DNA of 64,000 nt from Planctomycetota bacterium (GCA_014240375.1 JAAZXB010000005.1:297-64296), one strand, 5' to 3'; shown: positions 2,570-43,764, counted from the first letter of the stretch. Program-made: numbers and translations. Notes: generated from the letters alone by a model not told the origin.

Positions 2570-3403
2570 TTACGGCAGAATCTCGGGGATGATTCTTTCG
2601 AGTCTTTCCTCGATGGCGGGCAGTGCGTTGGCTTCCGTCAGTTGAATCTGTCTTGCCGTGATGACGAGGGTGTTCTTGATGCGCACCTTGGTGCGTTCGG
2701 CGGCGTAGACCTGGTTGCGGCGGGTGCGGTTGCCCTCGGCGCCGGCGACGATGCCGGCGGACCCGATGGCGGTGATGGAACCGGCGACCGAGCCCTTCTT
2801 CGAGCGGTCATCGAGTTCGGTCTTGACGATGCCGCTGACCGCCTCGTCGATGCGCGTCTCGATGATCATCGTCCACGCCTCGCTACGGCTCTTGCGGTCG
2901 ATCAGGTCGCCGACGGCGGAACCGATGAAGGCGCCGGCGATGGTCGCATTCTGACGGGTGCGACGACTGTTATTGCGCGCCTGGTTATTGCCGATGGCGC
3001 CGCCGGCGACGGTGCCGAGCAGTTTGCCCATCGACGAGGAATCGTCGGGCAGGTTCTCGTTACGGCCCCAGAACTTGATGACGGCGGTGATGTCGTAGAG
3101 CGCCTCGGCGGGATCCTTGGTGACGGTCCATCCCTCTTCTTCCATGCTGGCGACGAGCATTCCACGCAATTTGCGGGTGTTGAGATCGAGCCCGGAGGGG
3201 TTTCTGACCTGGATGGTGACGCGACGGTCGTCGCCGCCGGGGCGATCACCGATGAACTCGGGCACGCCATCGACCCACTGCGCCTGGACATTCATCTCCT
3301 TGTAGCGCTCGCTACCGCCGGCGACGCTGACACAGCCGACAGTGGCGAGAGTGGCCCCCATCAGCACGGTGACCAGAGAGAAACAGATCAACGATCGAAA
3401 CAT
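2570..3403 (-). CDS. Lipoprotein with glycine-zipper-like segments (hypothetical)
   Basis: ORF 2570..3472; the likely start is internal, at MFRSLICFSLVTVLMGATLATVGC (lipobox LATVG-C). No recognisable catalytic motif. Confidence 0.55.
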   Translation of the reverse strand: MFRSLICFSLVTVLMGATLATVGCVSVAGGSERYKEMNVQAQWVDGVPEFIGDRPGGDDRRVTIQVRNPSGLDLNTRKLRGMLVASMEEEGWTVTKDPAEALYDITAVIKFWGRNENLPDDSSSMGKLLGTVAGGAIGNNQARNNSRRTRQNATIAGAFIGSAVGDLIDRKSRSEAWTMIIETRIDEAVSGIVKTELDDRSKKGSVAGSITAIGSAGIVAGAEGNRTRRNQVYAAERTKVRIKNTLVITARQIQLTEANALPAIEERLERIIPEILP

Positions 3404-3538
3404 CGGGGACTCCTTGCTGCAATTTTTGGGCGGGCTCGATGGAAAACAGGCGCGACTCCGAGGGGGAGCCACGCCTGATGATGTCTCATCGAAGGCGAGC
3501 AGGCAAGGGGAGCCTGCCCGCAGTGTCGACCGCTGCGG

Positions 3539-5083
3539 TCAGTCGCGCTGGATCAGCGGACACGCCACCTGCGGACGCTTGCGCATGAAGACGAAGTCCT
3601 CGAGGGTCTGGTTCTTGTTGTGACAGACGAGGCAGGCGGTCTCCTTGACCGCTGGCCACTGGTGGTTGACCGGATCACGCGGGTGATCTGGATTGAGACC
3701 GTGGCAATTCTCGCACTGAACATTCTTGTACGGTTCGGCATCTTCCGGCGCGATGAACGCCTGGCCGTAGCCGAGTACATGACAGGCGATGCAATCCTGG
3801 CGCCACTGATCGCCGGTCTCGACGAGACTGGCGAAGGCGGTGGCGTGCTTGGTCTTCTGCCAGAACTCGGTCTGTTCGACGTGACACACCGAGCAGGTGG
3901 CCGATGTCAGGTACTTGTCCTTGTCGTGTAACGGCGGCAACTTTGCGATGTCGAGGAACTCGGCATTTTTGCGAAACGCATCGACCATCGCGACGATCTC
4001 CGGATCTTCCAGCAGGTGCGGCTCCATCGAGGCGCGCTCGTACCAGTAGGTGGAACGGCCCGCCGGAGGAGCCTCGTCGTAGGAGAGGGAGACCATCGGG
4101 GCGCCGCCGTCGATCCAGTCGATGGCGAGGGTGCCGAGGCGCGCGCCCTGGCTGTCGGTGCGCGCCAGCAGCGTGTTGTTGATCGTCTCGAGGCTGTCCT
4201 CTTCGTCGATCCAGATCTTGTGATTGCCCAGTTCGATCATCGGATCGATCATCAGGTCGATGCCATCGACCTCGGCGGCGAGCTGACGGTTGGTGCCGAT
4301 GTGGTTGGCCGACAGCAGGATCACCATGTCGCACTGCTCGCGCAGTTGAGGAATCAGCTTCTGGGCGGTCTCGATGGAGTCGAGCAGTGCCAGTGGCCGT
4401 TCGGGATTGGCCTTCTCGAGGAAGTACGAAGGGATGGTGTCGATGGTCAGGCCGAGGATACCGATCTTGATTCCCGCCGATTCGATGATGGTGGTGGCGG
4501 GGAAGATCAGCTGCTGGTCATCGGCATAGACCAGGTTTGCCGACAGCAGCGGAAACTGCGCTTGCTTCTGAAAATCGAGCAGCGCCGGTAGACCCAGCGT
4601 CAGGTCGTGGTGACCCACCAGCATCGCCTGGTAACCCATGCGATTGTACGACTCGATGATCAGTTTTGCCTTGGCCAGCAGCTGTTGCCGGGCGAAGTCC
4701 TTCTTCTTGCCATCGTCGGTGCCAAAGAGGGTGTTGCCACCATCGATCAGCAGCAGGTTCTGGTGATGGAAACGAGTTTGATCGATGTAGGCCGAACGAC
4801 GGGTGATGGATCCCTGTCGCACCTTCTTGCGCTTGCAGCCACAGACATCGATGTAACCGACATTGTTGATGGAGAAGACCAGGAACAGATCGTGATCGTC
4901 GGTGCTGGCAGCATCATCGGGGGCGGCAGCGGCGGGCGCCGCGGCGCTGTCATCCTGCGGCAGCGGCGAGGTCGAGTTCGATCCGGGCTGGGCGTTGGCC
5001 TGGGGGCGCTGTTCGACCAGTGCCGGATAGACCATCATCAGCAAGATGGCCACGGTGATGATCTGGGGGAGCGATCTCTTCAT
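3539..5083 (-). CDS. Periplasmic calcineurin-like metallophosphoesterase (5'-nucleotidase-like) fused to C-terminal tetraheme c-type cytochrome
   Basis: 514 aa; signal peptide; GHHDLTLG and DGGN phosphoesterase-like motifs; four CxxCH motifs in the C-terminal 120 aa (CSVCH, CIACH, CENCH, CLVCH). Tandem paralog of the next gene. Confidence 0.8.
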   Translation of the reverse strand: MKRSLPQIITVAILLMMVYPALVEQRPQANAQPGSNSTSPLPQDDSAAAPAAAAPDDAASTDDHDLFLVFSINNVGYIDVCGCKRKKVRQGSITRRSAYIDQTRFHHQNLLLIDGGNTLFGTDDGKKKDFARQQLLAKAKLIIESYNRMGYQAMLVGHHDLTLGLPALLDFQKQAQFPLLSANLVYADDQQLIFPATTIIESAGIKIGILGLTIDTIPSYFLEKANPERPLALLDSIETAQKLIPQLREQCDMVILLSANHIGTNRQLAAEVDGIDLMIDPMIELGNHKIWIDEEDSLETINNTLLARTDSQGARLGTLAIDWIDGGAPMVSLSYDEAPPAGRSTYWYERASMEPHLLEDPEIVAMVDAFRKNAEFLDIAKLPPLHDKDKYLTSATCSVCHVEQTEFWQKTKHATAFASLVETGDQWRQDCIACHVLGYGQAFIAPEDAEPYKNVQCENCHGLNPDHPRDPVNHQWPAVKETACLVCHNKNQTLEDFVFMRKRPQVACPLIQRD

Positions 5084-5089: not shown

Positions 5090-6715
5090 TTACTTTCCTT
5101 CACTTCTCTTCAGTGGTGGACAGGCGATCCGGGGCTTCGATTGCTCCGGGTCGAAGGGCACCTTGGTCTCACTGGGATTATGACATGCCCAGCAATTGTT
5201 GTCCTGCACCGCCGGCCAGGGGAACGCCTGCGGCTGGCTCGGATGTCGTGGATTCTGGCCGTGACAGCTCTCGCACTGGACATCTTTCCAGCGTCCGGGC
5301 TGGTGGGCATCGACGAAGGTTTCGCCATATCCGGTGACATGGCACGGCATGCAGTCGTAGCGGAATTGATCGCCGGAGGCCTCGAGAGTGGCGTAGGCGC
5401 GTCCGTGAGCGGTTTTCTTCCAGAATGCGGTCTGTTGCGGATGGCACACGGCACAGGTGACGGAGCCGAGGAATTGAGACGAGGGCTTGAAGGTCATCTT
5501 CTGCTCCTCGATGGGGGTCTTGTAGCGGGTCGTGGCGAGAAAATCCTGGACGATTTTTTCCATCGCCGGGTGACGACCGATGTGCGGCGCCAGTGCCACC
5601 GTCGATAGATCGGCGATGTTGGAGCCGGCGGGGGCATCTTCATCCCAGATGCTGACCCACGGCTGGCCGCTCTCGCGCAACCACAGATCTGCCCGGGACA
5701 GTTCCGATCCCTGACCACTCGGCTTCAGCAGTACCGTGCCCTGATGCAGGGTGGTCTTGATTGCATCCTTGATCCAGGTGTTCTCGGAGCCGTTGCTGGA
5801 GTTGGGTTCGACCACTACATCGATGGCGGGCACCTCGGCGGCGAGGCGATCGACATCGGCACGGTTGATGTGGCCCAGCACCACACACAGGTCGACTTCA
5901 TCACCGTGTGCCTCGATCTCGGCGAGGATCGCCGGGTATGGATCGGCGAAGGTTGCACCGGCGCAGTGCTTGTCGATGAAGCGCTGCGGGGGCACTCGCA
6001 TGGCGCCGACGATCAGCACCTTGCGTCCCTGGCTGGTGACGATGGTCGAGGCGGCGAAGGGGGACTGACCGGTGGCATCCTTGAGGTTGGCGCACAGCAG
6101 AGGAAATTTCATCCGTTGCTGGAGCTGGACCAGTCGATCGAGTCCGAGGGCCAGATCGTGTTCTCCGACCGCTGCAGCAAAGGTGCCAAAGAGGTTGTAG
6201 GCATCGATCAGCAGCAGCGCCTTCTGATGCATCTGTTGCTGGAGTAGTGGATTCGGGTGCAGTCGTCCGAGCGAGAAGAGCCAGTCGCCGCCATCGACCA
6301 GCAACGGTTGGATCCCGTCCGCCTTCAACGAGTTGAGAAAGGTCATCCGTCTCGACAAACTGCCGAGCTTGATCTTTCGCTTGGGTCAGCCACACGGTTC
6401 GATGTAGCCGTAGTTGTGGACCGAGGCGAGCAGTAGAAATGGCTTCTCTTCCTCGTCTTCTCCCTGCGCGGGTTCGGACTGCGCCGGGTCGGACTGCGCC
6501 GGTTCGGACTGCGCCGGTTCGGACTGCGCCGGTTCGGACTGCGCCGGTTCGGACTGTGCTGCATCGGACTGTGCTGCATCGGACTGTGCTGCATCGGACT
6601 GTGCAGAGTTCTGCGGCACCGCGAGCGCCTTCGCAGGGGTGGCAGGGAGTGCTGGCTGTAGCAGTGGTGCGATCAGCAACGGTGCGCAGATCAACAGCAG
6701 TAGCGGGTACTTCAA
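5090..6715 (-). CDS. Paralogous metallophosphoesterase-tetraheme cytochrome fusion with in-frame TGA (6386-6388): selenoprotein candidate or pseudogene
   Basis: ORFs 5090..6358 and 6386..6976 are in the same frame, separated only by a TGA. The upstream part has a TTG start at 6715 with a GGGAGAG SD, a signal peptide (MKYPLLLLICAPLLIAPLL) and an (AQSEP)n linker. ...YGYIEPCG-TGA-PKRKIK... aligns without gaps to ...VGYIDVCGCKRKKV... of the paralog, so the TGA replaces a Cys codon. Four CxxCH motifs lie in the C-terminal part. Confidence 0.55.
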
Positions 6716-6734
6716 GTGCTCTCCCTCGTCCCGA

Positions 6735-7421
6735 TCAGGGACAAATTTCCAGACAGGGTAGCGCCTCGCTGGAGCCACGGGGGTAAAGCAGCGTTGCTTG
6801 TTGGTCGGAGCTGGTCGCCAACTGCGCCAGTGCCAGCACCGAATCCTCGATGGTGACCGAGCCGTTGTCATCGAAGTCGGCGGCCGCCAGGCAACTGGGC
6901 TGGGGTCCATCCTTTTCGAGCCAGCCGACCAGTTCGTGGAAGTCGGCCATGTCGAGATCTCCATCGGAGTCGACATCGCCGCGCACCAGGATCATCGAGG
7001 CGGTGACCGGAGCCTCCAGCAGCGGAACCGTGGTCGGCGGTTGCAGGATGTCGGAGAGGAGCAGCAGCGCGACCAGCAGTGCCGCAGCACTGCTCCACCA
7101 GCGACCGAAGGGGAGAGTGGTCGGTGAGGAGCCACCAGCGTCCGCGGGTTTGCTCGATCGATTGGCCGTGGTGCGGATCTGTTCGAGGGTTGCTTGCGAC
7201 AGTGCTGCAACCTGGTCGGGGCCGACGCCGGTCAGCGTCTCGATGGTCAGCAGCAGTTCAGTGCTCAACTGGTCATGGACCGTACGGCAGCCGTGGCAGG
7301 AGTTCAGATGGGCGGCGATTCGCTGCTCTTCCAGCGGTCCCGACTCGCCGTCGAGAAATCGCGGAAGAACGTTCCGCACCCCAGCACAATTATCGAGTGA
7401 GATCATCGGGCGATCGCTCAT
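6735..7421 (-). CDS. Anti-sigma factor (zinc-finger/ZAS-like N-terminus, one TM helix) with extracytoplasmic C-terminal dockerin module
   Basis: Start ATG overlaps the sigma gene stop (ATGA). N-terminus has AAHLNSCHGCRTVHDQL (HxxxCxxC anti-sigma zinc motif); TM segment WWSSAAALLVALLLL; C-terminus DVDSDGDLDMADFHELVGWL...DFDDNGSVTIEDSVLALAQLA is a two Ca-loop dockerin. Confidence 0.75.
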   Translation of the reverse strand: MSDRPMISLDNCAGVRNVLPRFLDGESGPLEEQRIAAHLNSCHGCRTVHDQLSTELLLTIETLTGVGPDQVAALSQATLEQIRTTANRSSKPADAGGSSPTTLPFGRWWSSAAALLVALLLLSDILQPPTTVPLLEAPVTASMILVRGDVDSDGDLDMADFHELVGWLEKDGPQPSCLAAADFDDNGSVTIEDSVLALAQLATSSDQQATLLYPRGSSEALPCLEICP

Positions 7422-8047
7422 GCGCTGCCCCCCTTCGCAGATTCGGAGCGTTTGAGCTCCTCGCGCAGTGCCTTGCGGGCACGTCGCATCAGGTAATCCA
7501 CCTGGTGGAAGGACAGGCTGAGGCGCTCGCCGATCTCCTCGTAGGAGTGGCCCTCGATGTACTTCCATTGCAGCGCCAGTCTCATCTCATCGGGAAGGCG
7601 TTGCACCAGCTCGTCAGTCTCGACCGAGGTCGATTCTTTCGAACGGTGCCGGGCCCGGGCCAGCAGTTCGGTGCGGGCTTGCTGGAGCACCACCCGCTTG
7701 CGCTGTTTCTGCTGGATCCACCGATGGGCTCGATTCTGAACCAATCGTGAAAGCCATCCGATGAAGGCGCGTGGCTCTCTCAGCGAGGGGAGAGAGCGCC
7801 AGATGTGAAGGAGGGCATCCTGGGCGACATCGTCTGCATCATCTCGACCCACCTTGCGCCGGGAGAGTCCCAGCACCAACCCACCGAAGCGTTCGATCAG
7901 CACGGCGAAGGCGGCTTCGTCGCCGCCGGCGGCACGCCGCACCAGGTCGACATCTTCCAGCTGAGAAAGGGACTGCGGAGAATCCGCTGGCGCCTTCTCG
8001 GGTCGATGATCGCCGGGAGCTGGACACATGCTGAATCTCCGGGTCAT
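7418..8047 (-). CDS. ECF-type RNA polymerase sigma-70 factor
   Basis: Region 2 (DDVAQDALLHIWRSL) and region 4 HTH (YEEIGERLSLSFHQVDYLMRRARKALRE). Translationally coupled to the downstream anti-sigma gene. Confidence 0.85.
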   Translation of the reverse strand: MTRRFSMCPAPGDHRPEKAPADSPQSLSQLEDVDLVRRAAGGDEAAFAVLIERFGGLVLGLSRRKVGRDDADDVAQDALLHIWRSLPSLREPRAFIGWLSRLVQNRAHRWIQQKQRKRVVLQQARTELLARARHRSKESTSVETDELVQRLPDEMRLALQWKYIEGHSYEEIGERLSLSFHQVDYLMRRARKALREELKRSESAKGGSA

Positions 8048-18866: not shown

Positions 18867-19883
18867 TTGAGAAGATATCAGGGAGAGACGGGCCAGGTGG
18901 AGGTGGTCGAGCAGCGGTCGAAGCAGCTGGAAGGAAACCCGCTGGGGGATCCTCCGCTGCGAAATATCGCCATCTGGACCCCTCCTGGCTATTCCGCGGG
19001 GGGGTCTCAACGGTATCCACTGCTGGTCGATCTGGCCGGATTCACCGGCAGCGGACTCAAACATCTGGCCTGGTCGGCATTCACCGAGAACCTGCCGGAG
19101 AGGCTCGATCGGCTGGTCGGAACCGAGCAGATGAAGCCGTGCATCGTGGCGATGCCGGATGGCTTCACCTCCCTGGGAGGAAATCAGTACATCGATTCTC
19201 CAGCGGTGGGGCCCTGGGCCAGTTACCTGGTCGAAGAGCTGGTGCCCTTCATCGATGATCGCTGGCGAACGCTTGCCCAGCGAGATCATCGGGGAGTGTT
19301 CGGGAAATCCTCCGGTGGCTACGGAGCACTGGTCCACGGCATGCTTCACTCCGACACGTGGGGGGCGATCGCCTGCCACAGCGGCGACATGTACTTTCCT
19401 TACGGCTATCTACCCGATTTCCCCCTGGCGATCGATGTGCTGCGAAGGTGCGGCGGAAAGACCACCTTCCTCGAGAAGTTTCGCAAGAAGGTCAAGCCGC
19501 GTCACGATGATGTGATGACACTGATGATTCTCGCGATGGCCGCTTCCTATGACCCGGATCTGCAGAGACCGGGGGAATACCACCTGCCCTTTGATCTGGA
19601 AACCGGTGAAATCATCGATGAGAGGTGGCAGCGGTGGTTGGAACACGACCCGGTTCAGATGGTCGATCGACATCACACCGCTCTGAAATCACTGAAGTGC
19701 CTCTTCATCGATTGCGGTTTTCGGGATCAGTACCGTCTTCACCATGGAGCGAGAATGCTGGCAAAGAAGCTCGAGAAATTCGAGGTCCCGCATCTGCATC
19801 AGGAATTCGATGACGACCACTCTGCTGTGGATTACCGACTGGATGTGTCGCTTCCCATCCTGGCGGAAGCATTGTCCCCCTGA
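18867..19883 (+). CDS. Esterase D / putative esterase family (alpha/beta hydrolase)
   Basis: VFGKSSGGYGAL (GxSxG nucleophile elbow); N-terminal ...EVVEQRSKQLEGNPLGDP typical of esterase D-like proteins. Start uncertain (TTG 18867 with GGAG upstream, or GTG 18897). ORF 18717 overlaps the pepF start. Confidence 0.65.
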   Translation: MRRYQGETGQVEVVEQRSKQLEGNPLGDPPLRNIAIWTPPGYSAGGSQRYPLLVDLAGFTGSGLKHLAWSAFTENLPERLDRLVGTEQMKPCIVAMPDGFTSLGGNQYIDSPAVGPWASYLVEELVPFIDDRWRTLAQRDHRGVFGKSSGGYGALVHGMLHSDTWGAIACHSGDMYFPYGYLPDFPLAIDVLRRCGGKTTFLEKFRKKVKPRHDDVMTLMILAMAASYDPDLQRPGEYHLPFDLETGEIIDERWQRWLEHDPVQMVDRHHTALKSLKCLFIDCGFRDQYRLHHGARMLAKKLEKFEVPHLHQEFDDDHSAVDYRLDVSLPILAEALSP

Positions 19884-19922
19884 TGGGGCACATTGCAGAC
19901 CCCGGGAGAACCTGTCGAGATG

Positions 19923-19966
19923 AAAAAGACCCCCGCCGTCGTTGACGGCGGGGGTCTTCTCTTTGG
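19923..19966. terminator. Bidirectional rho-independent terminator between convergent genes
   Basis: aaaaAGACCCCCGCCGTC-gttg-GACGGCGGGGGTCTtctcttt: perfect 14-bp GC stem with A/T-rich flanks. Confidence 0.8.
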
Positions 19967-20004
19967 CGGAGCCAGCCGGTGGTTCTGGTGAACCTGGTGT
20001 GGTG

Positions 20005-23336: not shown

Positions 23337-26300
23337 CTAGTAGGGAGAATCGATGCAGTCGAGTACGTCGTCGGTCGGGTCCAGACCGGCATCCGGGTAG
23401 GGTGCGGCGGGCGGAATCAGCGGCGTTCCATCCGCATGCAGGTAGTAGAAGATCATCAGCATGGCATCGCCGATGGTGACGATTCCGTTGTCATCGAAGT
23501 CTGCCGAATCGAAGCAAGTCGGCTCTGCTCCGTTGACGAAGAGCCAGTTGAGTACCCAGATTCCGTCGGCGATGTCACAGTTGGTATCACTGTTGGCATC
23601 CCCTCTCAGGAAGGTCTTGACGAATCCAGAGCAGGTGGTGGAGGTGGTGACTCCATCGGCATGCTCGGCCCAGATCCGGTAGGTGTAGGTGCCCTGGGCG
23701 GGGACCACATCGATGGTGCTTGTGGCGGAACCCGGAATCGAGGAGATCAGCACTCCGTTGCGCTCGATATGGATCGTCGAGTACGTCGCAGTGTTTTCCC
23801 AGTCGAGATGAATCGGCGCACCGAAGAAGGTGCAGGCCAGATTGATCGGCGCCGACAAGATGGTCACCGAGCAGGTGATGGGAGCGGTCTGGGATCCCGC
23901 CAGTGTCGCGATGACTTCGTAGGAGTAGGTTCCGGCTTCCAGTGGGATGTCGGTGTAACTCTCTTCGGTTCCATCGACGAAACCAACCAGCACGCCATCG
24001 CGAGAGATCTGGATCAGGTCGTAGGACTCACCGTTACTCCAGGAGATGGTGTTTCCGTCACCGATGGTGCTACAGGCGATCCCGGACATCGGTTGCGGCA
24101 CCACGATGGTGCAGCAGGTGGTGGCTCCGGTGCCATTACCGATATTGACCACCAGGCAGTACTGGTAGGTTCCAGGACCGGGGTTGTCGGTGGTACTGGT
24201 GTCGGAACCTGCCAGCGAGCCGATCGGGGCGCCGTTACGGGTCAAACTGATGAAGTCGCCTGCGGCGGGGAGGTCCCACGCCAGTTGCACGGTGGATCCA
24301 CCCGCAAGAGTACAACTGATGTTCTGTGGAGTGGAGGGGACCTCTTCCGAGCAGGATGCGGTGGAGGAGGTGCTCGCATCACCGAGGGTGGCGGTCAACT
24401 CGTAGCTGTGTGAACCATGAGGCTGGGCCGGATCGGTGAAGCTGTTGGTGGTTCCGGGCAGTAGTGCCAGCAACGCACCGTCTCGTGTCAACGACAGGGT
24501 GTCGTAATCATCGGTGTTGGTCCAGCTGAGAACCACATCACCAGAGGTGGCGACGCAGCCGAAGCCGGTCGGAGCGGAGATCACTCGAGCAGAACAGCAA
24601 GTCGCAGCACTGGTGCCGGTACCGATCAGGTTGACGACACAGTACTCATGGGTGCCGACCGGGGATCCCGAGTCATCGTAGGAGCTGGCACCACCTCCGA
24701 GGGTGGCGATCACAGTTCCATCACGAGAGATCTGAACGGTGGTGCCGGGGGCCGGCAGGGTCCACGAGAGAGAGACGGTCGACCCGAGAGCAGAGCAAGC
24801 GATGTCGATCGGGGTCGAAGGCACATCGACGGTGCAGTCGACGGTGTCGCTGATACTGGCGGCGCCGGCGTCGGCAGTCATGTCGTAACTATGTGCCCCG
24901 GCTCCCGCAGTAGCGTCGTGGTACGAGCTATCGCTTCCGGCGAGGATCGCCAGCGGTTGTCCATCTCGGTGGAGAGTGATGGTGTCGTAGACATCATTGT
25001 TGGTCCAGCTGATATCGACCTCGCCGCCATTGGCAGCACAGGCGAATCCGCTCGGGGCAGCAAGTACCCTGGCACTGCAACATGTGGTGGCACTGGTGCC
25101 GTTTCCGATCATGTTGACGATGCAATATTCGTTGGTGCCGACAGGCGCTCCCACATCTTCATGTGAGGTGGCATCTCCTGCGAGCATGGCGATGACGGTG
25201 CCATTTCGGCTCAGTGCGATGGTCTCGCCCGGGGCCGGTAGGGTCCAGGAGAGAGAAACGGTCGATCCCAGTGCCGAACACGCCATGTCGGTCGGTGTCG
25301 ATGGAACATCGACGGTGCAATCGACGGTGTCGCTGATGCTGGCGGCGCCGGCATCGGCGGTCATGTCGTAACTGTGAGCACCGGCTCCTGCAGTCGCATC
25401 GTGGTAGGAACTGTCGCTTCCCGGGAGGATGGCCAGCAACTGGCCGTCACGGTTGACGGTGATGGTGTCGTAGACATCGTTGTTGGTCCATGAGATGTCA
25501 ACTTCTCCGGAGACCGCTGCACAGGAGAAGTCGGTCGGGGCCGCGAGTACCCGTGCACTGCAACAGGTGGTGGCACTGGTGCCACTGCCGATCATGTTTA
25601 CGATGCAGTATTCGTGGGTACCCGCCGGTGCTCCCACATCCTCGTAGGAGGTGGAATCTCCCGCAAGCAACGCGATGACGGTGCCATTGCGACTCAACTC
25701 GATGGTTTCACCGGGTGCGGGCAAGCTCCAGGAGAGTGAAGCGGTGGAGCCGAGTGCCGAGCAGGCCATGTCGGTGGGGGTCGATGGTACATCGACGCTG
25801 CAATCGACGGTGGCACTGGTGCTGGAAGGACCGCCGTGGGCGGTCAGGTCGTAACTGTGAGCACCGTGCGCCGGCATCGCATCCTGGTAAGACGAATCGC
25901 CTCCCGAGAGGATCGCCAGCAGCTGGCCGTCACGATTGAGAGTGAAGGTGCTGTAACTGTCATTGTTGGTCCAGGAGATCTCGACATTGCCGGCGACCGA
26001 CGAGCAGCTGAAGTCGCTCGGATCCGCCAGCACATGAATGGTCGCGCAGATGGTGGTACTGGTGGCATCACCGATTTGCATCGTGATGCAGTACTGGTAG
26101 TCGCCCGGGGCCAGCCCGGTGTCGTCATGGGACTGGGTCGCTGCGGGTAATGACTCGATCGGCAGGCCATTTCTGGTCAGTTCAGCAGTGTCTCCGGGCC
26201 CGGTGTGACTCCACGACAATGAGGTGGTCGAGGCGAGTGCGGTGATTTGAAGATCGGTCGCCGGAGCGGGAACATCTTCGGAACAATCCACCGTCGAGGA

Positions 26301-29300
26301 ACTGTTGCCGTCCTTGGCACCACTGAGGGTGTAGGTGTGCGAACCGGGTTCGGTGGCGAGATCGGAGTAGGAGGTGACGGCTCCCGGTAACACCGCGATG
26401 ACGGCTCCATCTCGGAGCAGGGTCACGCTGTCGTATTCCTCGTTATTGGTCCAGCTCATGTCGACATCTCCGGCGCTGCAGAGGCACGAGAAGTTGGTCG
26501 GAGGAGCAGGAACCAGCAGGGTGCAGCACGCGGAGGCGCTGGTCTTGGGGCCGAAGCGATTCAACACGCAGTAGCTGTAGGTGGCGGGAGCCACACCAGC
26601 ATCGGTGTATCCAGCGCTGGAAGGATCGAGTTCGGCGATCAAAGTACCGTCGCGCCACACCTCGATGGTGGTGGAAGGCTGGGTGTTGACCCAGGTCAGA
26701 ACCGAATCCACTCCACCCGAGACTGAACAGGTCAGATCAGCAGGCGGGTAAGGAACGGTGACCTCACAGGCGATGGTTTTCGATTCGTGATCTCCGATGC
26801 GGCCACTGACCTCATAAAGATGAGGACCCGGTCCGGCGATGCTGTCGACATAACTGGTCGCGAGGCCATCGAGGTCTTCCAGGATGGTGCCTCCATCGCG
26901 CTTGAGGATCACATTGTCGTAGGCCTCTGCATTGGTCCAACTGATGGTGGCGATGGCAGAGTCCACCCCACAGATGAGATCCACCGGTGGAGCAGGAACG
27001 ATGGCCGGGGTACAGGTGTCGACGCTGTGGTTGTTACCGATCCGGGCGCGCAAGCAGTACTGGTAGGTACCCGGGTCGAGAGTCGGATCGATGTAGGAGG
27101 TCGCCGAGGCGGGAAGCGTCGCGATGACGATTCCGTCGCGGAAGATCCGGATCGAGGTGGCGTCCTCGGTGGGGGCCCAGGTGAGTAGCATGTGAGTGCC
27201 CTCGACCAGTCCGGTTCCGAGGGTGTTGATCGGTTCGGGAATGACCGTGGTGCAGTGGGTCGGATCACTTTCACTGGATCCCTTGAGACCTCGAAGGGTG
27301 TAGGAGTAATCTCCCGCGGCCAGCGGGGAGTCGATGTACTCGGTCGTGGTGCCGCTCAGGGTGGCGAGGACGGTCGATCCTCGCATCACCTCGACCTGGT
27401 CGTAGGCGGGCGCCGGGTTCTGCCAGTTGAGGCGAACCTGATCTCCCTCACCCTTGCAGGTCAACGCCTGTGGCTGGCGAAGGACGGTCAATCCACACGA
27501 TTGTGCAGCGGAGAGACCTTGACGACGTTGCGCAGTGATCGAGTAATTACGATTACCATAGGAAACATCTTCATCGGTGTAACTGGTGCTACTTCCCGAG
27601 ATGGTATCGATCAGGAAGCCGTCGCGGCGAATCGCGATGCTGTCGTAGGTTCCACCGTTGCTCCAGGAGAGGAACACCGATGAGCCGGAGGCGGAACAGT
27701 CGAGGGCCCCCAGCGGATCGGGCACGGTCAGGGTGCAGCAGCTTCTGCCGCTTTCTCCGGTGAACTTGACCCCGCGCACACAGACCGCGTAGTCGCCAGG
27801 TCCACCCTGGATCTGGGTGGTGTAACTCTGGCTAGTTCCAGGGATCTGATCGATTTCGGTCACGGTGGAGGAGTCGGTTCCCGGTCCGAACTCGATGATG
27901 ATGTAGTCATAGGCGTCGGTATTGAGCCAGCTGAAGGTGGCGATATCCACATCCGAGGAGCAGTTGATCTGCTCGACCGAGATGGGATCGACCAGTTCAC
28001 AGGTGGCACGAGCACTGACCGCTCGTCCATCATCGGCAACACCCTCTACCTCGTAGATGAAGCGTCCTGCAGAGATGACATCCGTGGTGGTGGTGGCATC
28101 TCCGGCGAGCGTCTGGATGTGCGCACCATCGCGATAGATGTTGATCAGGTCGAATCCATTTGGATTCGGCATCAGGTTCCAGTGGATGGTGGCGATGATC
28201 TGATTCTGGGCATCTGGAGCGGCACTGCAGGTGGCGGTGTAGGGCGGCATCAGCGCAGTGATACTGCAACTGGTCGAGAGGGTCGTGGTTCGATCTCCGC
28301 GCTCCACCACACTGTACTGGTGGATTCCAGAAGAGACATTGTTGTCGTGGTAGGAGGTACTCCCACCCGGCAGGGTGCTCTGCAGCACACCATCGCGGTA
28401 GAGGTCGATCAGGTCGTAGTTATCACTGTTACTCCAGGAGATGGAGATGTCGCGGTGCAGGGAAGTGCAGTCGAGAGAGGCGATCGGTACCATCACGCGG
28501 ATATCGCTACCGCGCTCGACGGTATTGATTGCACGACGCCGTCCACGGACCGAGTAGTGGTGATCTCCGTAGGCGACTCCAGAGTCGGTGTAGGCTTCGG
28601 TGTCCCCTGGCAAGGTCGCCAGCAATACTCCATCTCTGAACAGATCGACTTCGTCGTACACCGCACGGTTGTTCCAGGTCACATCGACGGTCTGTCCCAG
28701 ACAAACGGTCTGAACGTTGTTGGGAGAACGCAACTTGTGACCGAGGAATACGTAAACGCTTCCTGCCCCGTAGCGTCCGTAGGGCTTTGATCCCGCCGCA
28801 CCGATCAGCAGGTCGTTTCCTCTGTCATCATTGAAGTCGCCGGCGGCTCCGACCGAGATCCCCACTTGTTGACCTTCCTTGAGGCCGAGGTATCCGCGCC
28901 CTTCATGCTGGAACAGGTCCAGCAACTGGGATTCACCCAGCATCTGGCCACCGTTGACGCGGTGGGCCATTCCCTTTTCCACATCGAGCAGAATCGATCG
29001 GGAGATGCCAACGATGTGGTCATCGATTCCGTCACCGCTCACATCGAGCGTGGTGTGAACCGACTGCCCGTCTTCATCATTGTCGTAGAAACTCATGTAT
29101 CTGGTGATCCAAGGTGCAGGGATGGCGAGATTGATCTCGGCAGGGGGGCTGAACCCTCCACGAACCAGGTACGCCACAGTGGCAATCGTTTCAGGGTCGT
29201 GATCGTGAAGTGAGCGACTGATCAGTATTTCGGTGTCTCCATCCGCATCGGAATCGCCGGCACAGGAGATCGATTGGCCCAGTTCATGGTGTGCCTGGGG

Positions 29301-30284
29301 AACCCGAAGGGTGGTACTGGTCAGGCCACTGGCTGCGATGTCGGTCAGTGTGACTTCAGCCGGGGGAGTCGTTCCACCGTAGATGATCCAGGCGCGACCC
29401 GCATTGGCAGAGGAATCGTCGGAGTGGCGCATCGAAGCGATGGCGATGTCCGAGTGTCCGTCTCCATTGAAGTCTTCAAGGTCGGCGACGCAGGATCCCA
29501 CCTCCTGATGGGATCCACCGGAGCGGAAGATGGTCACATTGCTATGAGAATTCTTGAGGTCGATGGTGGCAGGAAGCGAGTTGCCCCCGCGAATCAGGAA
29601 GGCACTTCCACACACTTCGAGGGAGTCGTTGGAGTCCTCGGGGGCTCCGATGATGACATCGGAAAAACCGTCGCCATCGAAGTCGCGAGCTCCGGAGACG
29701 GAAGCGCCCAGATGCGAACCTTCGCGGGCACCGATGATCTCGACTCCGGAAGATCCAAGGTTGGATACGTCGATGATTCCCGGCGGATTGGCGGAGCCGT
29801 AGATGATGTACGCTCGTCCTGCTTCACCCTCGTCCGGATCGCTGCTGGAGGATCCCGGGGCACCGATGATGTAATCATCGATTCCATCGCCGTTGACGTC
29901 ACCGGCGTCCGAGACCGATGCTCCCAGCATCGATCCTTCCGCCGCACCCTGGATGACGATGACGCTGCCAGGGTGGGAGTAGAGCAGGTCCAGTTCGGTG
30001 GCAGGGGAACTGGAACCGAGGATGACGTACGCTTTTCCACCGGTGTTGTGGGAGCGGTTATCGGATCCAGGGGCTCCAGCGACGATGTCGGGAATCCCGT
30101 CCCCGTTCACATCTCCGGCACCCGAGGTCGAGGCACCGAGATGGTCCTCGGCGTGGGCTCCAACGATCCGGATCTGTGCGGTATCGATGAACACTTGATC
30201 GGAGGCCTGAGCGACCGTGGTGAAGAGCGAGAGGAAGGTGAATGCGATTACAACTACACCTAGGGTATATTTACGAATGCTCAT
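23337..30284 (-). CDS. Giant cell-surface protein: signal peptide, integrin-alpha-type FG-GAP repeats, ~20 Ig-like/fibronectin-like ~95-aa repeats, C-terminal dockerin
   Basis: 2315 aa; repeated GASVSGAGDVNGDGIPDIVAGAP FG-GAP units; repeated SWTNxxxYDxIxLxRDGxxLAxLxGxxxSYxD modules, several nearly identical at DNA level; C-terminus GDANSDTNCDIADGIWVLNWLF...DFDDNGIVTIGDAMLMIFYY. Confidence 0.9.
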   Translation of the reverse strand: MSIRKYTLGVVVIAFTFLSLFTTVAQASDQVFIDTAQIRIVGAHAEDHLGASTSGAGDVNGDGIPDIVAGAPGSDNRSHNTGGKAYVILGSSSPATELDLLYSHPGSVIVIQGAAEGSMLGASVSDAGDVNGDGIDDYIIGAPGSSSSDPDEGEAGRAYIIYGSANPPGIIDVSNLGSSGVEIIGAREGSHLGASVSGARDFDGDGFSDVIIGAPEDSNDSLEVCGSAFLIRGGNSLPATIDLKNSHSNVTIFRSGGSHQEVGSCVADLEDFNGDGHSDIAIASMRHSDDSSANAGRAWIIYGGTTPPAEVTLTDIAASGLTSTTLRVPQAHHELGQSISCAGDSDADGDTEILISRSLHDHDPETIATVAYLVRGGFSPPAEINLAIPAPWITRYMSFYDNDEDGQSVHTTLDVSGDGIDDHIVGISRSILLDVEKGMAHRVNGGQMLGESQLLDLFQHEGRGYLGLKEGQQVGISVGAAGDFNDDRGNDLLIGAAGSKPYGRYGAGSVYVFLGHKLRSPNNVQTVCLGQTVDVTWNNRAVYDEVDLFRDGVLLATLPGDTEAYTDSGVAYGDHHYSVRGRRRAINTVERGSDIRVMVPIASLDCTSLHRDISISWSNSDNYDLIDLYRDGVLQSTLPGGSTSYHDNNVSSGIHQYSVVERGDRTTTLSTSCSITALMPPYTATCSAAPDAQNQIIATIHWNLMPNPNGFDLINIYRDGAHIQTLAGDATTTTDVISAGRFIYEVEGVADDGRAVSARATCELVDPISVEQINCSSDVDIATFSWLNTDAYDYIIIEFGPGTDSSTVTEIDQIPGTSQSYTTQIQGGPGDYAVCVRGVKFTGESGRSCCTLTVPDPLGALDCSASGSSVFLSWSNGGTYDSIAIRRDGFLIDTISGSSTSYTDEDVSYGNRNYSITAQRRQGLSAAQSCGLTVLRQPQALTCKGEGDQVRLNWQNPAPAYDQVEVMRGSTVLATLSGTTTEYIDSPLAAGDYSYTLRGLKGSSESDPTHCTTVIPEPINTLGTGLVEGTHMLLTWAPTEDATSIRIFRDGIVIATLPASATSYIDPTLDPGTYQYCLRARIGNNHSVDTCTPAIVPAPPVDLICGVDSAIATISWTNAEAYDNVILKRDGGTILEDLDGLATSYVDSIAGPGPHLYEVSGRIGDHESKTIACEVTVPYPPADLTCSVSGGVDSVLTWVNTQPSTTIEVWRDGTLIAELDPSSAGYTDAGVAPATYSYCVLNRFGPKTSASACCTLLVPAPPTNFSCLCSAGDVDMSWTNNEEYDSVTLLRDGAVIAVLPGAVTSYSDLATEPGSHTYTLSGAKDGNSSSTVDCSEDVPAPATDLQITALASTTSLSWSHTGPGDTAELTRNGLPIESLPAATQSHDDTGLAPGDYQYCITMQIGDATSTTICATIHVLADPSDFSCSSVAGNVEISWTNNDSYSTFTLNRDGQLLAILSGGDSSYQDAMPAHGAHSYDLTAHGGPSSTSATVDCSVDVPSTPTDMACSALGSTASLSWSLPAPGETIELSRNGTVIALLAGDSTSYEDVGAPAGTHEYCIVNMIGSGTSATTCCSARVLAAPTDFSCAAVSGEVDISWTNNDVYDTITVNRDGQLLAILPGSDSSYHDATAGAGAHSYDMTADAGAASISDTVDCTVDVPSTPTDMACSALGSTVSLSWTLPAPGETIALSRNGTVIAMLAGDATSHEDVGAPVGTNEYCIVNMIGNGTSATTCCSARVLAAPSGFACAANGGEVDISWTNNDVYDTITLHRDGQPLAILAGSDSSYHDATAGAGAHSYDMTADAGAASISDTVDCTVDVPSTPIDIACSALGSTVSLSWTLPAPGTTVQISRDGTVIATLGGGASSYDDSGSPVGTHEYCVVNLIGTGTSAATCCSARVISAPTGFGCVATSGDVVLSWTNTDDYDTLSLTRDGALLALLPGTTNSFTDPAQPHGSHSYELTATLGDASTSSTASCSEEVPSTPQNISCTLAGGSTVQLAWDLPAAGDFISLTRNGAPIGSLAGSDTSTTDNPGPGTYQYCLVVNIGNGTGATTCCTIVVPQPMSGIACSTIGDGNTISWSNGESYDLIQISRDGVLVGFVDGTEESYTDIPLEAGTYSYEVIATLAGSQTAPITCSVTILSAPINLACTFFGAPIHLDWENTATYSTIHIERNGVLISSIPGSATSTIDVVPAQGTYTYRIWAEHADGVTTSTTCSGFVKTFLRGDANSDTNCDIADGIWVLNWLFVNGAEPTCFDSADFDDNGIVTIGDAMLMIFYYLHADGTPLIPPAAPYPDAGLDPTDDVLDCIDSPY

Positions 30285-38518: not shown

Positions 38519-39634
38519 CTATCGAGCCGATTGATCGGTCCTGGATTGTAGTCGTAGCCAGCTTTCGATGAAGGGTTGGAGGTCTCCATCGAGAACAGCG
38601 TCGGTGTTTGAAGTCTCGTGATCGGTTCTGTGATCTTTCACCATCTTGTAAGGATGCAGCACATACGAGCGGATCTGGCTGCCAAAAGCAATCTCGCTCT
38701 TGAGGCCCTGGATCTTGTTCATCTCCTCACGCCTCTTCTGCTCCTCTGCCTCGAGGATCCGAGCCTTGAGCACTCGCATCGCCTGGGCTTTGTTGGCGTG
38801 CTGACTGCGTTCATTCTGACACTGGACGACGATTCCGCTGGGAATGTGGGTGATACGAACCGCCGAGTCGGTGGTGTTGACGTGCTGTCCGCCCGCTCCA
38901 CTGGCGCGGTAGGTGTCGACTCGAAGATCCACCTCAGCGATTTCGACGTCATCCACGACATCGGTTTCCGGGATCACCCGCACCGATGCAAAGGCGGTTT
39001 GTCGCCTGGCCTGGGCGTCGAAGGGGGAGATGCGAACGATTCGATGGACTCCCGATTCTGCACGAAGGTAGCCGTAGGCGTGATCCCCCAGCAGGTGGAT
39101 GGTGGAGGATTTTAGACCCGCTTCTTCGGCGAACTGCTCATCGATGATGGTGGTTCGGTAGCCCTGTTGCTCAGCCCAGCGCAGGAACATCCGCTGAACC
39201 ATCAATGTCCAGTCACAGGCATCGGTTCCACCGGCGCCTGCTTGAATCTCGAGATAGGCATTTGCACTGTCGTACTTGCCACGAAGTAGCGTTTTCAGTT
39301 CCAGCTGATCGGCACGCTCCAGTAACAGAATGCTATCCCGTTCGATTTCTTCGAGGGTCTCGGCATCACTATCTGCCACGGCCAGTTCGACCATCGCCAG
39401 GGAATCTTCCACCAGTTGCGCCAGGTCTTCGATGCTCTGTACCGATTCCTTGACCCGCTTCAACTCTGCGATGGTCTTTTCGGCATGGTCACGGTCATCC
39501 CAGAAATCAGCGACGGACATCTGCTCCTCGAGAACCTTGAGGCGCTCCTTCTGCTGGTCATGGCAGGTCGCATCGCGGATCCGCTCGAGCAGGGACTCGA
39601 TGTCGTGCAGTCTCGAGTTGATCTCGGAGTTCAC
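38519..39634 (-). CDS. prfB: Peptide chain release factor 2 (no programmed +1 frameshift)
   Basis: SPF and GGQ motifs; GTG start at 39634 with GGAGG SD, giving (M)[20 protein letters not shown]... continuous with the body of the protein. The longer ORF to 39952 is non-coding-looking. Confidence 0.88.
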
Positions 39635-40267
39635 GATCCTCCACCATCCTGCCAGGGGGTTGTCATTGATCTGGTACCCATGGTGCCGCCGAGAGGGCTC
39701 CGGGCCAAGAGGACCCGAGGACTCGGGCCCAACTAATCTCAAGAAATCAGCGATTTTTTCGAGATGGAGGGGAATTCGGGGGGGGGGAGGGATCGATCGG
39801 CACGGCTCGAAGTCGGTCGTTACCATGAAAAAAGAAGGGCCCGGCAGGAGAATCTCCTGCCGGACCCCATCATCTACCGAGCGGTCAGGCAGCGATGGCT
39901 GCCCACTCCATGGAGTGGGTGCATCAAAGCAAGCACCTCTCAGCAGAGCCACGGACTATCATCAATGGATCACCTCCTTCCGGGTCAACACCCGGCCTCG
40001 CGCGGACATGGCTCCCGCAGCCGGGGGGACAGGGTCCCGTCCAGTGGCGTCCCACCGGATCGGCTGGAACAGGATCGGACACGGCAGTGTCAGACCCTGC
40101 GAATCGCAGAGATCGACGTCAATGTCGACTCCTGTGCTACGATTCTATCACTGGGTCCAGATGGGGGAATCGCCGGCGCAGCAGAGCGGCAGAAATGCCC
40201 TGAATTGGGTGAATTGGCGAGCCACCGGGTCCCCATCCCGGTCCTGATGGTGTGGCAGGAGGAGTAG

Positions 40268-41221: not shown

Positions 41222-41400
41222 TGAGCGACTCAATTGAGCGCTGACTCAAAAGGGGCATTGAACTTTTTTTGACGATCCGGCATAGTTTGAGAGTCCCGGT
41301 CTGCCGCACCGGGATCTGGTTACTGGAGTCCTCTCGGATGAGATCTGTGCTTCGCCGTAGGCTGACGGAATCCTACTTCTCGACCATCTGTACTGCTGGG

Positions 41401-41535
41401 GTCCGTAATTCTACGGTCCGCGATTCCACGCTTCCCAATTCGATACCCCGCAATTCGATACCCCGCAATTCGATACACCGCAATTCGATACACCGTGATT
41501 CCATGCACCGTGATTCCATGCACCGTGATTCAGAG
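41401..41535. repeat. Tandem repeat array, 15-nt period (~9 units: ccccgcaattcgata x~4, caccgtgattccatg x3)
   Basis: Read directly; sits at the extreme 5' end of, or just upstream of, the CHAT-TPR gene. Confidence 0.85.
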
Positions 41536-43764
41536 GTCTGCTCATCCGAGCCACGATGCACTCGAGTCGGCCAGTGGCTCCCGCTCGATTCGACCGCCAC
41601 CGCAGCGATAGGGCTGCCCCTTCTCATCCTGTGCCTCGCCCTGTTTTTCTTTCCTTGCGGGAGTGCGGCGCAGATCAACGATCTGATCCTGCTCGAGGGG
41701 AGACTGTCGACCAGTCGTCCACTGATGGATACCGATGTACTGGCGATCGCCCTGCCCCCTTCCGCCGTGTGGCGGCACGTCGAGGTGCTACTGGTCAGTG
41801 ATGGCATCGAGGTGTCTCTCACCACTGCCGATGTCGATGGGCAAGAGCGACACCTGAGGTTTTCCGATCAGGAACTTTTCGGACCCGATCCGGGTCGTTT
41901 CTCCGGAGGAGAACTGCTGGTCCGCATCACCGAATCAGGGCAGCAAGCGATTCCTCATCGGATGGCTTCCGCTGTCGATCCCGCGCCTTGGTATCCCCAT
42001 GGCGCCACTCCCCAGGATGTTCTGGAGCGTGCAGCGAGGAAGTTGAAGGAGGGGCTGACGAAGAAGGCCGCCGAGGACTTGCTGACGCTTCGAGATACCG
42101 CGCTGGTGCCGGCACTCTCATCGGAAAGGATGAGATTGAATGCATCGGTGCAGCAAGCCTATTCGGATGTCAGTTCGATCCACGGTCGCACCGCAGAACA
42201 GTTACTCGAGTCTGCAGTTCTTCGCGCACCCGCAGGATCATCGACCAGAGAAAAAGTGCTGATCGATCAAGCGGCTCAGAACATTCGTAAAGCGACGTTT
42301 TCATCCGATCGAGAGACCTGGAGGAGCGAACTGACCGAGGCGTTGTCACGGGCGCGGTTGGCTCTGTCATCGGCACGTGAACTCGACCATCGAGACAATG
42401 CGGCGGCAGCATTGCTGGAGATTGCTGCTGCGGCTTCATGGCGCGGTTGGGCACTGGAAACTCGTGCAGCGACCGAAGCTGCGCTGGATCTGGCGGGCGA
42501 TCCCGATACCCGCTGGAGGTGTGCACTGGCATTGGCTCGCTCTCACATGGTAACGGGGAAACTGTCCGAGGCGGTCACCGAGGCTCGTGAGGCCCTCTCC
42601 ATCGTCGAACAGATCCGTGGGAGTCGCCACGACGATGCGGCAGCGATGGGTCTGCGTCGACAGCCAGCGATCTTGCTGGCAGACATCGAATCTCGCAGAG
42701 GCGATGCGCTCTCTTCCTTGATCGCCGCCGAGAAGATCCGGGTTCGAAGCAGCGGCGCCACGCCGATCGATCGAGCGGCACTGGAAAAACTGGCCCGCGA
42801 TGCTCAGGGGCTGGCCACGGTAGTCGTGGCGCTCGACGCAGGAACGGTGCTGTTGGTCTGGTCCACCGTCGGCGGAGAGTGGCAGCACCGGCGGATCGAT
42901 CAGCGCCGAGGAGAGGCGATCGAGCGTGGGATGGCACTGCATCACTCTCGAGGAGCGAATGTCGAGGCAGCCGACTGGCTCTCGAAGCGGCTCTTTCCCG
43001 CGGCCCTGAATCCATGCGATCGTTTGCTGCTGGCCCCGATCGGTGGATTGCGAAGAATTCCCTGGGGCATCCTCACCATCGATGGGGAAGCACTGGTCGA
43101 TCGCTGCAGCTGGAGTCTGTTGCCGGGACTCGGCAGCGGGCCGCGAGCCCTCGAACCGTTACCGAGGGAGGGGTGGTGGACGGTGGTAGATCCGTGGGTC
43201 CCCGATCGATCTCGATTGCCTGGATCCAGGGCGGAAGGGGAGCGGATCCAGGATCGTTTTCCGGCGGTCGAGTTGCGCTCAGGAGAAGCGGCGACGGTGG
43301 CCGCGGTGGAGCAAGCGGCGACGGTCGCAAAGGTGCTCCACATCGCCTGTCATGGAGACTTCCAGCCCTACGACCCAGGCGGGTCGAATCTGCGACTGAG
43401 CCCTGCCGGCGAGTCCGATGGAGTGCTCACTGCCGATCAGTTGTCGCGGATGGAACTGATCGATTGTCGGCTGCTGGCGCTGACCGGATGTGAGACCGCT
43501 TTGGGTTCGGCGAGCGGCGCCGACGACCTGGCGGGATTCCCGCGGGCGGCGCTCGAAGCGGGGTGTCAGGCGATTTTGGGGACGCTTTGGCCGGTCGAGG
43601 ACGCCTCGGCAGGTAGATTTCTTGGATCGCTGGTGGCAGCCACGGATGGCCAGGTAGAGCCCGCAGAGGTGCTCAGGCGGGCATGTAGGGCCAGAAGAGG
43701 AGATCCGAGGGATCGCGATCCTGGCGCCTGGAGTGGCTGGGTTCTGGTTGAGAATGGCTGGTAA
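41518..43764 (+). CDS. TPR + CHAT (caspase-HetF-like peptidase) domain protein, secreted/periplasmic
   Basis: Hydrophobic signal (LPLLILCLALFFFPCGSAAQ); C-terminal VLHIACHGDF...LLALTGCETALG are the CHAT His/Cys catalytic dyad regions. Start ambiguous (ATG 41503/41518 inside the repeat array; ORF opens at 41269). Confidence 0.7.
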   Translation: MHRDSEVCSSEPRCTRVGQWLPLDSTATAAIGLPLLILCLALFFFPCGSAAQINDLILLEGRLSTSRPLMDTDVLAIALPPSAVWRHVEVLLVSDGIEVSLTTADVDGQERHLRFSDQELFGPDPGRFSGGELLVRITESGQQAIPHRMASAVDPAPWYPHGATPQDVLERAARKLKEGLTKKAAEDLLTLRDTALVPALSSERMRLNASVQQAYSDVSSIHGRTAEQLLESAVLRAPAGSSTREKVLIDQAAQNIRKATFSSDRETWRSELTEALSRARLALSSARELDHRDNAAAALLEIAAAASWRGWALETRAATEAALDLAGDPDTRWRCALALARSHMVTGKLSEAVTEAREALSIVEQIRGSRHDDAAAMGLRRQPAILLADIESRRGDALSSLIAAEKIRVRSSGATPIDRAALEKLARDAQGLATVVVALDAGTVLLVWSTVGGEWQHRRIDQRRGEAIERGMALHHSRGANVEAADWLSKRLFPAALNPCDRLLLAPIGGLRRIPWGILTIDGEALVDRCSWSLLPGLGSGPRALEPLPREGWWTVVDPWVPDRSRLPGSRAEGERIQDRFPAVELRSGEAATVAAVEQAATVAKVLHIACHGDFQPYDPGGSNLRLSPAGESDGVLTADQLSRMELIDCRLLALTGCETALGSASGADDLAGFPRAALEAGCQAILGTLWPVEDASAGRFLGSLVAATDGQVEPAEVLRRACRARRGDPRDRDPGAWSGWVLVENGW

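Follow-up and report, generated by a model that had tools for sequence, protein, structure and literature searches.

A probable selenocysteine codon in a nucleotidase-fold multiheme cytochrome gene of Planctomycetota

The locus

We analysed a stretch of 64,000 nucleotides (nt) from a Planctomycetota bacterium (GCA_014240375.1, JAAZXB010000005.1:297-64296), hereafter called the window, and in particular a minus-strand gene at positions 5090-6715 whose reading frame contains a TGA codon. An original prediction, made from the sequence alone, held that this TGA encodes selenocysteine (Sec) in a protein which joins a phosphoesterase to a multiheme cytochrome, and that an adjacent paralog has cysteine at the same place. 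Read through the TGA, the frame forms a putative selenoprotein gene which is complete from start to stop; we refer to this gene as the Sec copy and to its neighbour as the Cys paralog. The features of the locus are listed in Table 1.

The open reading frames (ORFs) 6386..6976 and 5090..6358 lie in the same frame on either side of the TGA at 6386-6388. The original prediction had stated that only this codon parts them, and our frame analysis bore this out: it is the sole break in the frame of the Sec copy, and both halves of the frame are also intact in orthologs. The prediction had also placed a TTG start with a Shine-Dalgarno sequence, a signal peptide and the first conserved block upstream of the TGA, and all three are present, in the form of GGGAGAG before the TTG, a hydrophobic and signal-like N-terminus, and the block KPFLLLASVHNYGYIEPCG. 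The codon context of the TGA is ...YGYIEPCG-TGA-PKRKIKLGSL..., after which the frame resumes with PKRKIKLGSLSRRMTFL... and continues for 431 codons to the TAA stop. Comparison of the Sec copy with the Cys paralog by BLASTP gave 34% identity over 458 columns (E = 3e-91), with the TGA aligned to the second Cys of the paralog's CGC; the alignment is ungapped there, which agrees with the earlier placement of the TGA on the third residue of this motif.

A low-complexity linker separates the signal peptide from the folded domain. The copies of its 15-nt repeat show 94% matches to each other, and the length and sequence of the linker vary even among close orthologs, with one (L001) having a shorter and different linker and another (L003) having none.

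Table 1 Features of the Sec copy and its neighbours. Nucleotide positions are counted from the first letter of the window; residue rows give conservation among 72 Sec forms (family members with TGA), in the numbering of the window Sec protein.
Feature	Position	Strand	Basis or description
Complete putative selenoprotein gene (Sec copy), 541 amino acids	5090-6715	minus	TTG start 6713-6715, Sec-TGA 6386-6388, TAA stop 5090-5092
UGA, predicted to be read as selenocysteine, residue 110, motif P-C-G-U	6386-6388	minus	TGA at same codon in family members; TGC/TGT in others
SECIS-like hairpin CUCGGCA-GUU-UGUCGAG, 7 base pairs	6351-6367	minus	Apical loop GUU 6358-6360; pairing and covariation
AQSD/AQSEP low-complexity linker	6464-6601	minus	15-nt tandem repeat, 9.2 copies (Tandem Repeats Finder)
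5'-nucleotidase/UshA-like (metallophosphoesterase-fold) domain, limits approximate	5690-6445	minus	NF041198, hhalign, Foldseek of paralog model
Degenerate metal motif VDGGD, Sec copy	6284-6298	minus	
Degenerate metal motif GEHD, Sec copy	6155-6166	minus	
Degenerate metal motif LGHIN, Sec copy	5864-5878	minus	
Tetraheme cytochrome c554-like domain	5180-5455	minus	Pfam PF13435 (Cytochrome_C554), E = 3e-12
CxxCH motifs, Sec copy	5441-5455, 5339-5353, 5261-5275, 5180-5194	minus	
Tandem Cys paralog, 514 amino acids	3539-5083	minus	CGC at 4835-4843; four CxxCH
ECF-type sigma-70 factor heading conserved gene string	7418-8047	minus	Pfam Sigma70_r2 and r4; synteny
Putative anti-sigma factor (zf-HC2), 19 nt from Sec gene start	6735-7568	minus	Pfam PF13490; synteny
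TraT-like/glycine-zipper lipoprotein, downstream of Cys paralog	2570-3472	minus	Pfam PF05818, PF05433
Cys108-Gly109-Sec110 triad			C-G-U kept in 72/72
Gly118			Gly kept in 72/72
Asp141 and Gly143 (VDGGD, first Asp)			Asp and Gly kept in 72/72
Asp144 (VDGGD, motif II Asp)			Asp kept in 64/72
Glu185 (GEHD)			Glu kept in 53/72
Asp187 (GEHD)			Asp or Glu in 72/72
Asn210 (CANL)			Asn kept in 72/72
His282 (LGHIN)			His kept in 67/72
Asn305 in the window Sec protein			His in most (45/72)

Conservation of the TGA codon

The fused sequence, used as a protein query, gave about 27 top clusters at 93% to 42% identity, which cover only the last 77% of the query and all begin just past the TGA position, as would be expected if gene callers cut every ortholog at the same stop. 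We therefore turn to DNA, for which 160 homologous loci (80 from genomes and 80 from metagenomes) were scanned for C-G-TGA versus C-G-TGC/TGT, counting distinct sequences. The TGA was found at the identical codon in 13/13 orthologous genome loci, from marine Planctomycetota metagenome-assembled genomes at 95-51% identity, and likewise in 5 metagenome loci; the N-terminal block stands in frame upstream at all of these. A TGA form also occurs on a closed chromosome (OZ244999.1). Altogether 24 distinct planctomycete sequences, down to ~30% protein identity, have TGA at the same codon with the frames intact on both sides. Whether orthologs carry Cys or TGA at this site was a check proposed with the original prediction, and across the 160 loci it gave 72 distinct family members with C-G-TGA and 32 with C-G-TGC/TGT. 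These Sec and Cys forms span many phyla, including Planctomycetota, Acidobacteriota, Thermodesulfobacteriota/'Deltaproteobacteria', Eisenbacteria, Myxococcota, Latescibacterota, TA06 and others.

The wobble positions flanking the TGA differ between sequences, so that these sequences are independent observations and none is a copy of another. As an ordinary stop, TGA is used more often than any other codon in the window, ending 19 of its 32 genes, which indicates that the genetic code has not been reassigned.

This distribution bears on two simple explanations of the codon. The first, which the original prediction had named as its competitor, is that a recent change of TGC or TGT to TGA killed one of the two tandem paralogs. 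A pseudogene of this kind would account for a lone in-frame stop at a Cys position and for the way gene callers split or truncate the gene, and no Sec machinery is visible in the window; however, the same TGA recurs in the planctomycete sequences and across the phyla counted above, no further stops or frameshifts occur on either side of it, and conservation at the protein level persists both upstream and downstream. The second is that the real codon is TGC or TGT, each a single base away from TGA, and was misread during sequencing or assembly. Against this, the TGA is present in independent assemblies from different projects and habitats, in which the flanking wobble positions vary. Since neither a nonsense mutation nor an error would turn up repeatedly in independent assemblies from several phyla while leaving the frame intact on either side, we consider both to be excluded, the pseudogene being extremely improbable and the misread codon no less so.

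The hairpin downstream of the UGA

A short hairpin resembling a bacterial selenocysteine insertion sequence (SECIS) begins 18 nt past the UGA, with its loop beginning 25 nt past it. The original prediction had described a weak hairpin at about this distance (CUCG-9nt-CGAG, ~18 nt downstream); it is real, but it is longer than described, with a stem of 7 base pairs and a GUU loop. Covariation was judged on 21 distinct planctomycete sequences, in which 91% of hairpin cells pair, compared to 30-49% after the 3' partners are displaced by 1-3 columns. One pair is compensatory, switching between CG and GC in a 10:10 split, and since both of its columns are third codon positions (Leu CTC/CTG vs xxG/xxC) protein constraint is no explanation for the pairing. 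The loop bases G35 and U36 are invariant, as is their Ser codon AGT, which makes up 14% of Ser codons in the window genes. Identity at synonymous sites in the 16 codons past the TGA was 0.68 vs 0.55 elsewhere, within the top 2% of sliding windows along the gene. RNAalifold retained only the inner 5 base pairs of the hairpin together with a long-range helix, which is uninformative because its bases are invariant.

The same region was compared between forms across the whole family. The best downstream stem-loop had a median of -8.9 kcal/mol in the 72 Sec forms vs -4.45 kcal/mol in the 32 Cys forms (Mann-Whitney: p = 3e-8), despite the lower G+C of the Sec forms. Nearly all loops of the Sec forms are G-first (GGC, GGA, GUU, GUC) and begin 18-28 nt past the UGA. 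As described for bSECISearch, bacterial SECIS elements reportedly have a spacing of roughly 16-37 nt and a G in the apical loop, and the pattern of the Sec forms matches this. Judged from these alignments and folds, the downstream hairpin is specific to the Sec forms family-wide and shows covariation.

Domains, family and degenerate active site

With U written as C, the Sec copy matches the NCBIfam family NF041198 (UshA_like_PCGU, 'UshA-like (seleno)protein') at E = 6e-72, in two stretches of which the best covers profile positions 18-265 of 519. At 310.6 bits on the same profile (E = 2e-92), the Cys paralog exceeds the curated cutoff of 275. The P-C-G-U/CxU motif near the start of the nucleotidase-like domain is present in the Sec copy (...YIEPCG-TGA-PK...), and its weaker NCBIfam matches are to SoxB, UshA and cyclic-nucleotide phosphodiesterases. 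In structure prediction the Cys paralog stood in for the Sec copy, giving an AlphaFold2 model with a predicted local distance difference test (pLDDT) score of 88.4. Foldseek searches with this model found 5'-nucleotidases, CD73 and SoxB with E values down to 4e-23, identifying a metallophosphoesterase fold. The PDB held no close relative, with the best matches being nucleotidases at 15-22% identity. Pfam matched only the C-terminal Cytochrome_C554 domain of the Sec copy. Four CxxCH motifs are found in 68/68 complete Sec forms, in 29/29 complete Cys forms and in both window copies. The nucleotidase matches from NCBIfam and Foldseek, the cytochrome domain and these motifs fit the earlier description of a phosphoesterase joined to a multiheme cytochrome.

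The likeness to phosphoesterases is one of fold. Alignment to E. coli UshA by hhalign (probability 97.9) covered the protein only from motif II onward, pairing GGD/GGN with GGD, GHHD/GEHD with GNHE, and LLSAN with LLSAN, and the DxH region found no alignment to this enzyme. The Sec copy does not carry the canonical set of metal ligands (DxH, GD, GNH(E/D), H, GHxH): of these only the Asp of motif II is fully retained, and most Sec forms have the later His positions (67/72 and 45/72). The Cys paralogs lose several conserved positions, with GGN or GGS in place of GGD and Ala in place of the motif IV His. The Sec protein thus has a phosphoesterase fold without a phosphoesterase active site, and as its metal-ligand motifs are degenerate it should not be filed as a phosphoesterase.

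In the paralog model the C-G-C triad lies in the loop between strand 1 and helix 1, where canonical enzymes start their DxH motif. We considered C-G-U as a direct replacement for D-x-H, which could not be shown; the triad sits within this strand-to-helix loop, a few residues past that point. Where the triad stands relative to the old metal site and to the hemes is a matter of inference.

Weighing the selenocysteine reading

Several observations count against reading the UGA as Sec or against parts of the picture built on it. The 81 nt past the TGA fold no more stably than shuffled sequences (z = +0.72), and with the fold of this stretch unremarkable we rely on covariation and on the comparison of Sec with Cys forms. 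Only one base pair of the hairpin changes on both sides, and four loci (L012, L013, L085 and L086) better fit a register-shifted stem of 7 base pairs with the loop AGUUUG. Rfam gave no match at the hairpin, a scan of the window at gathering thresholds returning two tRNAs only. ARAGORN found no tRNA-Sec in the window or in 21 loci, and tblastn with E. coli SelA, SelB and SelD gave no hits in the window or the 160 loci. On NF041198 the Sec copy scores 242.9 bits, under the curated cutoff, which makes it a clear homolog but only a possible equivalog. Confidence in the paralog model is lowest at the CGC loop, with pLDDT <50 for residues 22-28, and literature searches found no experimental, functional or structural study of the UshA-like CxU family.

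A permissive Rfam scan of 6280-6420 gave chance hits only, and no usable bacterial SECIS model matched there. A Pfam survey of ~40 window genes revealed no sel genes and no second selenoprotein. As the window covers only 64 kb of the genome, the absence of sel genes from it neither supports nor refutes Sec decoding; some Planctomycetes have the full Sec machinery (PMC4807772).

A scan of the window for further coding frames split by TGA found antisense shadows only. The one other same-frame, coding-like pair which is parted by a single TGA on the sense side between called genes lies at 19380-20004 on the minus strand (TGA at 19689-19691); it has no Cys nearby, and this TGA is probably an ordinary stop between two genes.

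The UGA could also be conserved and yet recoded in some other way, either by read-through with Trp or Cys or through regulated termination which yields a short N-terminal peptide and an internally initiated cytochrome. The hairpin is short, its surroundings have an unremarkable fold energy and a hairpin after a stop could promote generic read-through too; no Sec machinery was found in the window or the 160 loci. However, homologs alternate TGA with Cys codons only, a pattern characteristic of Sec; the hairpin, whose position and G-first loop are typical of bacterial SECIS, is missing from the Cys forms; the family is curated as a selenoprotein family; and a C-terminal product lacking a signal peptide could presumably not receive c-type hemes. 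We give such recoding a slim chance.

From the sequence comparisons as a whole, the in-frame UGA of 5090-6715 is very probably a genuine selenocysteine codon in an intact gene for a secreted selenoprotein. The original prediction had read the Cys/TGA pair between paralogs as the footprint of a Sec/Cys pair, and the conserved TGA, the Cys homologs, the Sec-specific hairpin and the NF041198 match all support this.

The tandem pair and its genomic neighbourhood

In every planctomycete locus with sufficient flanking sequence (L001-L013, L016, L019, L022, L087 and L090), the Cys paralog comes immediately after the Sec copy. This order is kept in two deeply separated planctomycete clades, the more distant of which (L016, L019, L022, L087 and L090) has a Sec copy and then a Cys copy with CGCKHKEVRQGS. 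Some Eisenbacteria (L067, L071 and L145) have two tandem Sec copies or a Cys-plus-Sec pair. The long retention of two copies which are only ~34% identical to each other argues for a joint function, and suggests that the Cys copy is not a spare for times of selenium starvation.

The pair is part of a string of genes which is conserved from 95% to ~50% identity: an amidase, a small ORF, a beta-eliminating lyase, an extracytoplasmic function (ECF) sigma factor, a zf-HC2 anti-sigma factor, the Sec copy, the Cys copy and a TraT-like lipoprotein. The lipoprotein was found after the pair in L001, L003-L005, L007-L011, L014, L083 and L089. The anti-sigma factor in the window (6735-7568, minus strand) closes with a D-x-D-x-D-G dockerin/EF-hand-like segment and then a Cys-rich tail, which is unusual for zf-HC2 anti-sigma factors; a separate protein with PKD and dockerin domains is encoded at 60427-62502 on the plus strand.

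Annotation of orthologs and other genes in the window

Public records of the planctomycete orthologs (P0001-P0027) all start past the TGA, for example P0004, a 'multiheme c-type cytochrome [Planctomycetota bacterium]' of 417 amino acids. In records of this length (~417 amino acids) the Sec residue is missing together with the signal peptide and strand 1 of the fold, where the true product would be a secreted selenoprotein of ~540 amino acids. The truncation of the planctomycete records is a systematic annotation error, and correcting the annotation of these orthologs is the practical value of analysing the Sec copy. In one ENA record of 298 amino acids (P0018), 100% identity to the middle part of the window protein is combined with unrelated sequence at the N- and C-terminal ends; it has the appearance of this gene assembled with a frameshift on a different contig.

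Four other genes in the window are worthy of mention. A peptide chain release factor gene (PCRF and RF-1 domains) at 38519-39952 on the minus strand encodes 477 amino acids, ~100 more than usual, with its first domain match starting from residue 135; the extra length may reflect an over-extended start or an RF2-type frameshift site. A 2315-amino-acid FG-GAP repeat protein is encoded at 23337-30284 (minus strand), and a CHAT-domain protein overlaps the start of a 906-amino-acid secretin at 41269-46453 (plus strand). An ORF of 1145 amino acids at 54845-58282 (plus strand) had been missed by a gene filter based on G+C at third codon positions (GC3).

Proposed mechanism

We propose that the UGA at 6386-6388 would be decoded as Sec by SelB and Sec-tRNA, recruited by the short in-frame hairpin with its G-first loop 25 nt downstream. 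The product would consist of a signal peptide, the repeat linker, the 5'-nucleotidase-fold domain with Cys-Gly-Sec and the four-heme c554-like domain, in that order. Only the full-length product would be exported and loaded with heme, since the C-terminal part alone, having neither signal peptide nor strand 1, could presumably not be exported to receive its hemes and could not fold on its own. The protein may act as a periplasmic oxidoreductase rather than as a phosphoesterase, with the four hemes shuttling electrons to or from the Cys/Sec centre. A selenenylsulfide couple could form this centre; alternatively, its thiolate and selenolate could serve as metal ligands together with the surviving Asp, Glu and His residues. 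The substrate would be small and anionic and, at a guess, a sulfur or selenium species, because of the kinship to SoxB and the precedent of MccSep, a selenoprotein polysulfide reductase which is discussed below.

The Sec protein may also act together with the degenerate Cys paralog. In the fullest form of this proposal, the Sec and Cys copies would form, under ECF control, a heteromeric periplasmic oxidoreductase in which the phosphoesterase fold has been turned into a Cys/Sec redox site, possibly metal-bound, with eight hemes in all, acting on sulfur, selenium or another oxyanion substrate that has not yet been assigned to any enzyme in marine Planctomycetota. We offer this complex tentatively and consider it rather unlikely to hold in every part.

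Handles for a first biochemical study are provided by the universal four-heme domain, the lost metal motifs, the Sec-specific SECIS hairpin and the Sec/Cys tandem behind an ECF sigma factor. The family is an abundant marine selenoprotein family for which no published function was found, and current knowledge of it is not overturned by these results.

Comparison with known systems

The Sec copy belongs to a selenoprotein family which was already catalogued in 2008 and is curated by NCBI, and so it is not a discovery. The family was reported as 'COG0737, UshA-like', with the motif CxU, in the Global Ocean Sampling selenoproteome of Zhang & Gladyshev, which listed 92 Cys homologs as well as 76 Sec sequences from 20 samples and placed the family among the twenty major selenoprotein families of surface ocean waters (PMC2398784). 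It was listed again in reviews of 2022 and 2026 (PMC9312934, PMC13188914), the latter of which ties it to NF041198; the CxU motif is given in both the 2008 study and the 2026 review (PMC2398784, PMC13188914). The Sec copy shares with this family the 5'-nucleotidase-like domain, P-C-G-U with a TGA-encoded U, and Cys homologs. It differs in carrying the repeat linker and, in these Planctomycetota, in having a diverged Cys paralog at its side in every case, with an ECF sigma/anti-sigma pair ahead of both. This conserved tandem, together with the truncated annotation of the orthologs, is what is modestly new here.

A second family of UshA-like (seleno)proteins (NF049981) is similar in being a nucleotidase-like selenoprotein family with Sec near the N-terminus of the domain. 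Its motif is CxxU rather than CxU, and both window copies score far under its cutoff of 140 (E = 0.018 for the Sec copy and 1e-5 for the paralog).

Canonical 5'-nucleotidases (E. coli UshA, CD73) and the thiosulfohydrolase SoxB have the same N-terminal fold (Foldseek: E = 1e-20 to 1e-23, including SoxB 2wdc), and the alignment to UshA includes motif II (GGD) and the 'SAN' strand. In contrast to these enzymes, the window copies lack DxH, have GEHD (Sec copy) or GHHD (Cys copy) where the enzymes have GNHE, and in the Sec copy add the Cys-Gly-Sec triad. There is also no match to the C-terminal substrate-binding domain of 5'-nucleotidases: the sequence and profile alignments stop at about residue 325 of the paralog, and the C-terminus instead matches cytochrome c554.

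A parallel in gene organisation is MccSep of Geobacter sulfurreducens (GSU2937/GSU2936), a pentaheme selenoprotein polysulfide reductase published in 2026 (PMC13510729). It too is a periplasmic multiheme c-type cytochrome with one Sec, whose UGA splits the gene into two called ORFs, and it likewise has Cys-type homologs and a SECIS-like hairpin within ~30 nt (PMC13510729). We tried MccSep/ExtKL (NF040886) as the family of the window proteins and rejected it, as the Sec copy had no match and the paralog only one at E = 0.98. The family of MccSep is unrelated: it has five hemes and an NrfA-like fold, and its Sec stands in the context PDGUP beside a Cys-ligated heme, whereas the window protein has four hemes and its predicted Sec lies in the non-heme domain.

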